A stretch of 62,461 nucleotides of DNA from Thermoplasmatota archaeon (GCA_049472235.1 JBLIRI010000001.1:1-62461); one strand, 5' to 3'; numbered from the stretch's first letter, positions 30,352-35,200 are shown. Program-made: numbers and translations. Notes: generated by a model from the sequence alone, not told the origin.

Positions 30352-30771
30352 ATGGAGAAGATGAAGGAACACACAAGCATGAAGAGGTCTGAAATGACCA
30401 CCAAGGACCTTGGTCTGAAGGTGATCGATGACAGGCACTGGCTCTACCGCAGGACCTGTCACGGCGATCCATCTAGAAGCTTCTGGTGGAGAGGGAGGCC
30501 CATGCCATTATGCTCGAGATGCACTGCATTCTATCCGATGGTCCCGCTGGGTCTTTTGATAGGTATTTTTCTGACATTCTTCTTCGACCCACCGTCCTGG
30601 CTCGCACTTCTGGTGTTCTCGATACTTGAGGGGCCTCTGGTCATAGACGGCCTTTCACAATATCAGGGGATGAGAAGTTCCAACAACCTCATCCGGGCGA
30701 TCACGGGTGCGATGGCAGGGGCCGGGATCGGGGGCGGGATCGCCTTCATGGCCGTCTGGATCGCGGGCTGA
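30352..30771 (+). CDS. DUF2085-like membrane protein
   Basis: 139 aa. CHGDPSRSFWWRGRPMPLCSRCTAFY is followed by hydrophobic helices. Confidence 0.65.
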   Translation: MEKMKEHTSMKRSEMTTKDLGLKVIDDRHWLYRRTCHGDPSRSFWWRGRPMPLCSRCTAFYPMVPLGLLIGIFLTFFFDPPSWLALLVFSILEGPLVIDGLSQYQGMRSSNNLIRAITGAMAGAGIGGGIAFMAVWIAG

Positions 30772-31184
30772 TCAGTAAAAGCTCTTGCATTTTGGGCAGA
30801 ACCAGGATTCGACCCTTTCCTTGTAGGACATGCTCGCCCCGCAAACAGGGCAGGATTCTCCCTTCTTTCCTTTCTTGTCCTGGTTCATGAACATGGAGTC
30901 ATATGACGGCTGTTTGTCCACGCCGGCCTGGTCCGGGCTGGTGAAATCGAACTCGTCATCACGGGCTGCGATATCCTGGCCGGTACCGCATTCCGGACAT
31001 CTCTTGGAACCCTTGGGGATCTTTGCCCTGCAGTTCCAGCACTTGACCTTCGGGACCTTCTTACCGGGCCTTGGCTCTATCTCCTCTTCTTCCTCTTCTT
31101 CTTCTTCCTCTTCATAGCGCCTGCTAGGCCGCTTGATCTTCTTCTTTCGGGGAGGCTCTTCTTCTCGATAGGCTGCCTTCTTAC

Positions 31185-31197
<13 letters not shown>
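30772..31197 (-). pseudogene. start-less coding segment with two zinc ribbons; -1-frame continuation of the upstream Lys/Glu-rich gene
   Basis: My own translation of the minus strand gives ...KKKIGKKAAYREEEPPRKKKIKRPSRRYEEEEEEEEEEEIEPRPGKKVPKVKCWNCRAKIPKGSKRCPECGTGQDIAARDDEFDFTSPDQAGVDKQPSYDSMFMNQDKKGKKGESCPVCGASMSYKERVESWFCPKCKSFY*. There is no in-frame ATG/GTG/TTG upstream of the first ribbon. This frame is open from 31413. Confidence 0.6.
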
Positions 31198-32108
<911 letters not shown>

Positions 32109-32160
32109 CACTTCCACCTCGGGGGATCGATACCATACATCATGAATAGAAAATAAAAAG

Positions 32161-32233: not shown

Positions 32234-35200
32234 TCACGGTGCGTCATCCATTGTCGGAGGTTCCATATCCTCTTCCATTTCGGATCCCATGTCCTCATCC
32301 TCAAGTTCGAGATCCTTTTCGGGGGGCTCGATCCCGGACCCGACCATTGCCGAGGTCCCGACCGAGGGGGTGCCCGGTGAAAGGCCCTCTCCAAGGTCCT
32401 CATCCATGGACCCCTCGTCCACCTCGTCCCCGGGAAGGTCCATGCCGCATTCGGGGCAGTAGGTCATTTCCTCCTCGAGAGAGGCCTTGCAGAACGGGCA
32501 CTCCTTTTTATGAAGCTCCTCCATCTCGGACCAGGTAGGCTCCTCGGAGGCCTCTGTGGATGGTGGCAATCCCTCTTCCGCTTCCTCTTCCTTTTCCTTC
32601 TTCTTATTGAAATATACAAGAGCGGCGACCGCAGCCCCGATCATGACCACGGCGATGACAGCGATCAGGATGATCAGCCATAGCTGTGACCCATTCTCGG
32701 AAACCTCCGGGATGCTCTCGATATCGGTGGGATCCGAACCTTTCTCGTATTCCTCCAGGTTCGTATACCCGTCCCCATCGAGATCGCCCTGGGCATCGGA
32801 AGCCCATTTCGGATTCAATCCCCACTCCACCTCCTTTCCGTCTGGTATGCCGTCATCGTCCGTGTCCGGATTGTCGGGCTCGGTCCCTATCTGATATTCG
32901 ACGAGATTCGTAAGACCGTCCTTATCGTAATCCTCCGCCGCATCGGTGTTGTCGGAAGGCGAAAGGAAATCGTACTGCAATTCGTAAACATCCGGGATCC
33001 CGTCCCCGTCCGTGTCTATATCCTCTTCCGAAATTGTCCTGAAATGGATCACCAGGTCAGGGGCCTCATTCCCTCTCAGGTCCATGATGGAACCCAGGGT
33101 GAAGGTGTAATTGGTGCCTCCGAGCAGGGAATCCTCGGAATAGAATGAGATCGTCCGGTTATCCAGGTCCAGGTTCGATCTCAACTGGACCGCCGAGCCT
33201 CCCTGAGGAACGAGGGACGATGTCAGTGAATCCCATCTGACCAGCTCAGAGAACCTCACCGAAATGAGAGGGCCTAGCTCCACATTCACCTCCCCGTCCT
33301 CCGGATAATTCGATATTATGCCCGGAGGGGTGAGGTCCGGGATCGATACTACCAGTGTGTATTCCTGATAGTTCCAGTTGCCTGCTATATCAAAAACCTT
33401 GATGGTCAGGAGATAGGAGCCGATATCGAGGTCCTTCACGAAACGGGTGCCGTGCACCTCCTCGTACGTGTAATTGTTAGAGACCGTCCATAGTACATCA
33501 TCTATGTCGTTGTTGTCGGTGATGTTCAGGGTCAGATCGACAGCTTCCCCTTCATAGAACTGAAGCGTGTCCCCTTCATGACCCTCGAGGAACATCTCGG
33601 GAGGAGTGAGATCGATCCAGATATCGGAGGAATTGTACGGGCCGTCGTTCCCGGAAGGATCGATGGACCTGAACATGGCATGATGTTTACCCTCGCTGAG
33701 GTAGAAATAGTACTGGAACACACCGTCCGTTGTTGTCCATCTCGTGATCTTCCCATCGGGATCCACGAAATCCTTGCCGTCAAGTTTGATCTCTATAACG
33801 GTCCGGTTCTCGCCTGTGACGTTCACTTTGAAACCTACCAGTGAGGTGTTGAAATAGAGTGAACCTGGAATGTACTGTTCCGAATCCAGGGGGAAGAACT
33901 CAAGCCTGGGGGATACCGGAGGCGTTATGTCAAGGGTCGTGAAATGGACCGACGAGGAAGGTGGACCAATATTCGGGGTCTCCGCATCATCCACTGAGAC
34001 TATCCACGCGGTCAGATTGGTCTCGGAGGGCAGATCCGTGACCTTATCGGTGGCGACCATGTGGCTGTCGATGTATTTGGACATGTTCCAGTTTCCATAG
34101 GTCTCCTTGACATGTATCCAGAAGCCGATCACATCATCGCTCGGGCTCGGATTCCACTTGAACTGCGCCCAGTCCCCTCCGAAATCCTTCAGGGTGAAGT
34201 TCCTGGGAGGTTCGGGGGGCACGATGTCCAGGGTCTTTCCGATGACGAAGCTTGTATTCCCGAGCGAGTTCGCATAGAAATCCTCCGACAGGATGCTGAA
34301 TTCCCAAAGGGTGTCGTGGGTCAGGCTGTCTACCACCAGGCTTCTCAGTGAATCGTCCGCGTTGACATACCTCATCGCGGAGAGCGGCTCGTTGGTCCGT
34401 TTGTACATTATGTTGAACCACCTCAGATCGACGGGAGGGTTCGGAAGGTCCCAAAGGAGCTCGATCGTCGTACCGGTCCTGTTCCCTATCCTGAGGTTCT
34501 CGGGCATCGGTGGAGGGGTCTTGTCGACTAACCAAGTAAGGTTGAAGTTGTCCCCGACGAAGAGTCCGGGGTCTTTGATATCATATCTCCAGTAGGCGGC
34601 CTGCCCGCTGAGCTCCCACCTCATGGTTATCTCCACTCTCACCGAGGACGTCCCGCCGTTGTGCTTGTACTGGTTCACCGCTATCGGCGGCATATCGCCG
34701 TTATCATCCGTTTTCATATCCTTCATGACGGAATCGAACACGGTCCACTCCTCGAGTTCGTTGGGGTATTTCTCTCCGAAGATCTTCACCGTGGCACCGC
34801 TTATCCCGGAAAGGTCCAGGTCGCTTATCGCCTTGAAGAAGAACCACTTGCCCTCGTTGACCTCCGCACTTGTGGCGGCGGTGGCGTTCATGGGCGCATT
34901 GAAGGTGCAGTTCACGAGCCATGCGTAGGCGCCGGTCGAGCCCCTGAAACCTGCCGAATTTCCCATGATGGTCGAATTGTAGACGAAGGCCCTCGATCCC
35001 ATTCCCATCGCTTTGACACCCCCGGCTGAACCCGTCATGACCAGATGCTCGATGATCCCGTATCCGCCCCTCGTCACATTTATCCCGTCGAAATAGAAGG
35101 AAGAATGGGACTTGTCGAGAGCGATCGGGGAAGCCTTCGTTCCCCGTGCTACGAGCTTCCCCTCGACCCAAATGCCGACGGAGGGGGGGAGGAGGACGGT

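Follow-up and report, generated by a model that had tools for sequence, protein, structure and literature searches.

A conserved run of adenines at a frame split in a multi-zinc-ribbon gene of Thermoplasmatota: a probable recoding site with two predicted isoforms

The gene discussed here lies on the minus strand of a 62,461-nt stretch of DNA from a Thermoplasmatota archaeon (GCA_049472235.1, JBLIRI010000001.1:1-62461; the whole stretch is called the window hereafter) and encodes a lysine- and glutamate-rich protein with several zinc ribbons. Its zero-frame open reading frame (ORF; 31185..32108) comprises 307 codons and a TAG stop, corresponding to the predicted short isoform, and carries two ribbons of the CxxC...CxxC type, namely ribbon 1 (32043-32096) and ribbon 2 (31410-31478). 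The zero-frame protein is highly charged, with about 32% Lys plus Arg and 26% Asp plus Glu. ATG 32108 is the likely start codon; a Shine-Dalgarno-like GAGGTGG (32114..32120), whose role is presumed from the sequence context, is located 5 nt upstream. The ORF is also open from an alternative GTG at 32117 (32117..31185), and the orthologues described below begin with MKV.C..C at the ATG equivalent to 32108.

At its 3' end the gene reads CGC AAG AAG AAG AAA AAA AAA AGA TAG, the stop occupying 31187..31185, which agrees with the gene end given in an earlier note on this DNA. The ten consecutive adenines (A10, 31190..31199) that form the candidate recoding site consist of the core AAA AAA AAA (31199..31191) and the first base of AGA, and they include the A_AAA_AAA heptamer in the zero frame that the same note had pointed out. 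The zero-frame TAG begins 2 nt past the run, and a TAA in the +1 frame (31181..31183), beginning 6 nt past it, shuts the third frame. The -1 frame is open from 31197 down to a TGA at 30774..30772 (141 codons plus stop, 30772..31197) and reads KKKIGKK...CWNCRAKIPKGSKRCPECG...CPVCGAS..FCPKCKSFY. This extension, which would be restricted to the 445-aa long isoform, does hold the two further ribbons claimed for it, i.e., ribbon 3 (CWNC..CPEC, 30988-31041, containing CWNCRAKIPKGSKRCPECG) and ribbon 4 (CPVC..CPKC, 30787-30852), with an FDF motif (30931-30954) between them. The earlier remark that no ATG, GTG, or TTG precedes its first ribbon holds as well: the first such codon in the whole -1 open frame is GTG 30921, downstream of ribbon 3.

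The two frames are joined, giving 445 aa, if the mRNA gains one A or loses two, or if the ribosome steps back by one base (-1). The predicted frame junction (...PPRKKKKKKK-IGKK...) is the same for a slip of the polymerase or of the ribosome; in the predicted long form the peptide across it includes ...PPRKKKKKKKIGKK..., and the junction sequence of this ~445-aa form reads ...YEPPRKKKKKKKIGKKAAYRE.... A10 is the sole A/T run of at least 9 nt in the 62-kb window. The genome as a whole (1.93 Mb, 104 contigs) has 22 of these runs, among which A10 alone lies within a long ORF with a continuing frame.

For context, the gene abuts tail-to-tail a convergent gene for a DUF2085 membrane protein on the plus strand (30352..30771; PF09858, E = 1.4e-22). 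A palindromic TGATCA (30769-30774) holds both stops at a gap of 0 nt, and because the genes abut in this way, each of the convergent transcripts must end inside the other gene. A tail-to-tail DUF2085 neighbour, with a gap of -7 to +59 nt, was found in 16 of the 24 loci tested (strict motif). On the plus strand, T10 is the first oligo-T past the DUF2085 stop in the window, which is not so in most relatives. The possibility that T10 serves as an archaeal oligo-T terminator for the DUF2085 gene was rejected, as other T5-T8 tracts lie nearer in most orthologues and the frame split would be left unexplained.

Relatives were sought by querying six-frame translations of related genomes with the C-terminal part, which identified orthologues in 19 further species genomes of the order; four more contigs (L049, L051, L052, and L053) came from a metagenome scan. 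The junction is contained in 22 loci, belonging to 18 species genomes (all seven genera of one Thermoplasmatota family) and to the four metagenome contigs. The sources are metagenome-assembled genomes of Thermoplasmatota/Thermoplasmatales from Guaymas (ex4484_6), cold seeps, Zodletone, wetlands, and other sites, built with varied assemblers, so that every sequence considered here is metagenome-derived. The 22 orthologues are akin to each other, and counts over them therefore overstate independence.

As to whether such relatives are fused or split and whether they keep the run, a check proposed in the earlier note, all 22 turned out to be split, with the AAA AAA AAA core retained across the seven genera. 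They have a common layout, consisting of an in-frame AAA AAA AAA, a zero-frame stop 2-6 nt after the run (22/22; background P for at most 6 nt = 0.06), and a ribbon domain in the -1 frame. A homopolymer of at least 9 nt stands at the junction of the overlapping frames in each case (A10 in the window; A9, A10, or A11 in the 22 sequences), and its total length is set only by the last base of the preceding codon and the first base of the next. The +1 frame is shut 6-21 nt after the run in all 22 (background P for at most 21 nt = 0.29 per site), and this closure uses different stops in different genera.

A few individual assemblies deserve a separate remark. The Guaymas ex4484_6 orthologue (L015, NJDO01000030) has a second frame break at 800-850, which puts its N-terminal ribbon out of frame with the middle of the gene; the break lies near ...AAGAAACCTTGTTTCCGGAGGAGATGA..., without a homopolymer, and probably reflects either misassembly or a lesion specific to that lineage. 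On a 1.5-kb metagenome contig (L050, Ga0209536_100490125), positions 1-201 hold a ClpB-like fragment (…VDFKNTVFIMTSNVGA…) in frame with the final 36 residues encoded by the ribbon gene, which is probably a chimeric assembly. An N stretch breaks the poly-Glu region of yet another orthologue (L009 of genome G011, ~990-1090), and many orthologue contigs end within the repeat-rich acidic tract, which seems hard to assemble in several metagenome-assembled genomes.

Continuous homologues were found as well. A genome of a sister family (G025) encodes one 272-aa ORF that lacks the A-run and has the same architecture, i.e., an N-terminal ribbon, a middle CKCG ribbon, and a C-terminal CPVCG..WYCPRC ribbon. 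An exhaustive HMMER profile search of 1.84 billion representative proteins gave two more continuous forms that likewise lack a run, P0052 (303 aa) and P0025 (218 aa), the DNA of the latter reading ...CCG AGG AGG AAG AAA CGG CAG... at the equivalent place; proteins of the split family are present in this library as orphan ORFs of 50-105 aa only. Other homologue searches, in which the fused protein was scored on residues 350-445 and the N-terminal part on residues 1-60, gave no match, probably because sequences of this composition are poorly served by word seeding. A tree built from the conserved blocks groups G025 and P0052 as an outgroup with good support; the fused P0025 sits on a long branch, in a basal polytomy that it shares with the split forms. 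The fused outgroups make the long protein the ancestral product and place the origin of the split at or near the base of the family.

When the orthologues are aligned on the core, the nine A's are the only invariant positions (2 bits each), and the flanking codons and amino acids vary by genus. Outside the site, AAA makes up 27% of the 1215 Lys codons of these genes (20.5% genome-wide), and the longest other A-runs measure 5-8 nt. None of the 210 other KKK triplets in these genes is spelled AAA AAA AAA, as opposed to 22/22 at the site itself, where AAA AAA AAG never occurs (0/22), though it would leave a good heptamer. At the level of these alignments, the run is kept by selection as nucleotides, with synonymous sites fixed across the orthologues. 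The place of a shift can also be narrowed down. In three orthologues (L008, L013, and L014) the -1 frame is shut upstream by a TAA whose two A's are the first two of the run, and the zero frame shuts 2-5 nt after the run, which leaves a frame overlap as short as 13-16 nt. Since the -1-frame stop overlaps the start of the run and the zero frame closes just after it, the shift must occur inside the run.

The -1 part, in turn, changes in the manner of a protein-coding sequence. Between L001 and L002 it differs at 7, 6, and 42 sites in codon positions 1, 2, and 3, respectively, which amounts to 36 synonymous and 12 non-synonymous codon changes, and other pairs are alike. The last 60 residues contain 10 invariant columns, the four cysteines included. 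By this pattern of substitution, the -1 part is coding and under purifying selection across the seven genera, and therefore not a decayed remnant, an outcome that the earlier note had linked to non-coding DNA past the stop.

Several explanations of the split have to be weighed against each other. The first option of the earlier note was a homopolymer error in sequencing or assembly, with a true sequence in frame; one lost A would suffice to create the split, and the source is a fragmented metagenome-assembled genome of 104 contigs. The identical frame relation is nonetheless found in 22 sequences, which differ in study of origin, assembler, and platform, and recurs in Logan contigs of further runs, one 245-nt contig of another run being an exact match to 31074-31318 with A10 included; moreover, a conserved zero-frame stop just past the run would be pointless were the gene in frame. 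With the run lengths reproduced in independent assemblies and in contigs from other samples, the chance of such an error is negligible. The homopolymer at the frame break is reminiscent of phase-variable contingency genes, e.g., those with poly-G/C tracts in Campylobacter, Neisseria, and Haemophilus, and the note's second option was a frameshifted or phase-variable allele; at such a locus, replication slippage would toggle between A10 (off) and A11 (on) within populations. Long homopolymers are generally hypermutable (PMC1088944), and contigs mask rare variants, so a minor in-frame subpopulation is possible. Unlike contingency genes, however, the ribbon gene has a run without indel polymorphism in 22 sequences or in independent samples: all 22 are in one out-of-frame state, with no frame-changing indel and no in-frame allele in the family, the differences between A9, A10, and A11 come from substitutions in the flanking codons, and contigs from three independent studies span the A11 of a wetland orthologue (L040, 884-894; abundant in prairie-pothole samples as well) with no differences and no gaps. 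A switch never observed in the "on" position is no switch, which makes phase variation very improbable; judging from these assemblies, the run is stable in DNA and the fixed state of the locus is out of frame.

Alternatively, there might be no recoding, with the zero-frame protein as the sole upstream product and the C-terminal segment either initiated non-canonically or surviving as an unexpressed remnant. Gene callers keep the two parts apart, the short orphan ORFs of the representative library fit this picture, and the long form is a prediction from sequence. Such a reading is nevertheless unlikely in view of the purifying selection on the C-terminal segment in the -1 frame across seven genera and the lack of any ATG, GTG, or TTG ahead of its conserved residues. 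The internal starts chosen by gene callers fall at differing, non-homologous places and trim conserved sequence, the fused outgroup homologues show the parts to be one protein, and the selection on the nine A's would be left without an explanation. Because the split recurs in every relative examined, across seven genera, the most likely outcome is that this gene yields two proteins, one short and one long, and we put the probability of programmed recoding, by any mechanism and giving 307-aa and 445-aa isoforms, at roughly 85%. The third option of the earlier note, -1 frameshifting or transcriptional slippage with two isoforms, is the one backed by the conservation in 22/22 and by the purifying selection in the -1 frame.

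Under programmed recoding, the single gene (32108..30772, minus strand) would give rise to two proteins by way of its conserved A-run. Standard expression would produce the 307-aa two-ribbon protein, which ends two codons past the run, and in a fraction of expression events the frame would move by -1 within the run to yield the 445-aa four-ribbon protein; both the long protein and the ratio of the isoforms are thus predictions. The mechanism that we tentatively prefer, at slightly less than even odds, is slippage of the RNA polymerase rather than of the ribosome. The archaeal enzyme would slip on the T10 template tract, leaving one A more or two A's fewer in the transcript. Ordinary translation of slipped transcripts would then read on into the C-terminal ribbons, and translation of transcripts with other run lengths would halt at the nearby stop of the zero or the +1 frame, producing the short form.

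The hairpin that the earlier note had seen right after the run does exist (GATAGG(T)-N-(G)CCTATC, 31167..31189, with a stem of 7 bp), but it does not hold up as a conserved stimulator: it adjoins the run, starting 0 nt after it instead of the 5-9 nt of a stimulator, and it is lineage-specific, being present only in the two closest relatives, L001 and L002, and missing from L003 and L004, although these belong to the same genus, as well as from all others. In the window, the 60 nt past the run are no more stable than shuffles (z = -0.54). Single-sequence folds of this region across the orthologues lie mostly within ~1 SD of shuffles (z < -2 in 3 of 21 distinct contexts), RNAalifold gave 0 consensus pairs over the orthologues, and Rfam gave no match at the site. 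Neither of the canonical -1 frameshift signals, i.e., a conserved structure 5-9 nt downstream or an upstream Shine-Dalgarno-like element, was found in the orthologues. Upstream of the run, 60 nt are more stable than shuffles in L007, L009, and L052 (genus g6) and in L001 (z = -3.8 to -4.6; -2.6 in the window), a folding that can be read as arising from the repeated EEYEPP motif, whose Glu-Glu codons (GAGGAG) pair with its Pro-Pro codons (CCTCC). RNA reads and contigs across the run were sought for the window, for Zodletone L033, and for Guaymas L039; none of them spans the run, and the matches are mostly low-complexity GAG/GAA. A 188-nt contig from a marine-sediment metatranscriptome (run X2) is identical to 31965-32152, i.e., the 5' end of the gene and 44 nt upstream of ATG 32108, which suggests that the ribbon gene is transcribed, DNA carry-over being possible.

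In favour of the polymerase, at least nine A's are always retained, which is the heptamer plus two, and most runs have 10-11. Nine is also the length at which selection against slippage-prone runs shows in many bacteria (PMC1088944). Polymerase slippage is favoured because such a length is kept with no conserved downstream structure and no Rfam element, and also because the +1 frame is shut in 22/22, a closure that matters only with transcripts of several lengths. Its prior is uncertain, since we found no documented programmed transcriptional slippage in any archaeal cellular gene in the literature. The site is equally fit for slippage or sliding of the ribosome, because every orthologue has a phased A_AAA_AAA and encodes a polybasic nascent peptide. 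A ribosomal shift, be it a classic -1 tRNA-Lys frameshift on A_AAA_AAA or sliding on 3-4 AAA codons, would give the same isoforms, might be assisted by the polybasic nascent chain and the close stop codon, and is a serious possibility, if short of an even chance. It is consistent with the correct phasing of the X_XXY_YYZ heptamer in 22/22 and the constant phase of the core, with a zero-frame stop within two codons of the core's end, and with the mostly Arg/Lys residues preceding the site. Furthermore, iterated AAA codons make ribosomes slide and shift frame (PMC4363877, PMC4552401), the poly-A sites of magnesium-chelatase genes, which measure 7-11 A's and include examples from Methanocaldococcus and Methanococcus, gave 10-63% length-dependent frameshifting in E. 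coli (PMC3711429), and fucA1, the sole proven archaeal cellular case, uses A_AAA_AAT (PMC8211752). The ribosome would nonetheless have to shift without a conserved downstream stimulator, the two invariant A's past the heptamer (AAA AAA AAG being avoided throughout) and the closure of the +1 frame would be superfluous to it or left unaccounted for, and the codon following the core, usually AGG or AGA, is not rare (AGG makes up 52% of the Arg codons here). The metagenome-assembled genome, fragmented as it is, contains 17 tRNA genes, none of them for Lys.

The device as such, a poly-A recoding site yielding two isoforms, is of a kind already known. The -1 frameshift of E. coli dnaX takes place at A_AAA_AAG, flanked by a Shine-Dalgarno-like site upstream and a hairpin downstream. 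It has in common with the ribbon gene a heptamer of Lys codons and two isoforms (predicted ones in the ribbon gene) with a common N-terminus, whereas the stimulators are unconserved in the ribbon gene, whose heptamer never ends in AAG. The closest analogue is the poly-A recoding site of magnesium chelatase, described for Pseudomonas, Delftia, Methanocaldococcus, and Methanococcus (Antonov et al. 2013, PMC3711429). Both systems combine overlapping ORFs with a -1 shift (a predicted one in the ribbon gene) at a conserved A-run (7-11 A's in the chelatase) that is under purifying selection across genera, archaea included, and both have fused single-ORF homologues elsewhere; in both, either the ribosome or the polymerase may be what slips. 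Unlike the chelatase, the ribbon gene belongs to an unrelated, uncharacterised K/E-rich multi-zinc-ribbon family of Thermoplasmatota, and its run never falls below 9 A's. The outcome differs too, as two large halves are joined in the chelatase, whereas the zero-frame product of the ribbon gene stops at once and the site would add a C-terminal module.

Transcriptional slippage at A9/T9 has been described for Thermus thermophilus dnaX and for IS elements (PMC1088944). As in these cases, the ribbon gene has a coding-region A-run of at least 9 nt, no stimulatory RNA structure is required, and mixed transcripts would give short and long products with a common N-terminus. In Thermus dnaX, however, unslipped transcripts encode the long product and slipped ones the short product, a polarity that would be reversed in the ribbon gene; moreover, those systems are bacterial, whereas the enzyme slipping on the ribbon gene would be archaeal (Pol II-like) and heterogeneity of its RNA is only predicted. 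The fucA1 gene of Saccharolobus solfataricus, with a -1 programmed frameshift at A_AAA_AAT (PMC8211752), is likewise an archaeal cellular gene with two ORFs in a -1 relation at an A-rich slippery site, and its full-length product is again the ancestral form (in fucA1 the functional one). Its split is confined to two strains with close relatives in frame, and its 7-nt site is accompanied by flanking rare codons and a putative stem-loop, whereas the split of the ribbon gene is fixed family-wide at a run of 9-11 A's with no conserved structure. Finally, poly(A)-track sliding (PMC4363877, PMC4552401) also involves consecutive AAA, not AAG, Lys codons and a length-dependent loss of frame. Such tracks have mainly been described as attenuators giving aberrant products, unlike the ribbon gene, where the -1 product is a conserved, selected domain.

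We found no paper describing this ribbon gene. Recoding in archaeal cellular genes comprises very few documented cases, namely fucA1 in two Saccharolobus strains and the predicted methanococcal magnesium-chelatase poly-A site (PMC8211752, PMC5009743, PMC3711429); the archaeal cases listed in reviews are fucA1 (two strains), predicted chelatase sites, and haloviral tail-chaperone sites (PMC8211752, PMC5009743). The ribbon gene might be the first natural programmed transcriptional slippage in an archaeal cellular gene, a family-wide trait (seven genera of sediment Thermoplasmatota) in which a Pol II-like polymerase stuttering on T9-T11 would set the ratio of the two- and four-ribbon forms of a hyper-charged protein, but this is a claim about which we are rather doubtful. 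In any case, the family-wide split lends itself, as a clean natural system, to finding out which of the two archaeal machines, RNA polymerase or ribosome, slips on long A-runs and with what efficiency, and the site could settle whether archaeal RNA polymerase slippage is naturally used. It also matters for annotation: in every genome, gene callers break the gene into a shortened protein and an orphan mini-ORF, masking a conserved four-ribbon protein.

As for the protein itself, Pfam searches returned sub-threshold matches only (DZR, 26.0 bits vs. a cut-off of 27.3; Zn_Ribbon_1, 23.2 vs. 25), and Foldseek against the PDB returned generic zinc ribbons only (E of at least 0.07). AlphaFold modelled the last 60 residues with a mean pLDDT of 68.6, the C-terminal 30 as a zinc ribbon (pLDDT ~80) and the FDF-motif region before it as poorly ordered. 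The ribbon gene is located between giant surface proteins; in at least seven loci (the window and six orthologous ones) the protein encoded next to it on the upstream side terminates in a CxxC-x11-CxxC ribbon plus a tail that is 31-38% acidic. In the window (32234-32480, minus strand) and in L005, L014, L015, L049, and L053, this giant surface protein ends with a transmembrane helix, the CxxC-x11-CxxC ribbon, and a tail of 47-79 residues with 31-38% Asp/Glu, and both the synteny and the tail design are kept across genera. One could imagine the ribbon protein as a cytoplasmic partner of these surface-protein tails, offering two ribbons in its short form and four in its long form. If true, the proportion of the two isoforms might adjust the valency of an adaptor beneath the membrane, since the neighbouring tails carry the same combination of ribbon and acidic module. 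The type of its C-terminal ribbon, CPxCGxxMxYxxxxxxWYCxxCxxY, is also found in unrelated membrane and surface proteins of the representative library (P0039, P0043, and P0031), where the cytoplasmic tail often has two copies, and it may be a portable interaction module.
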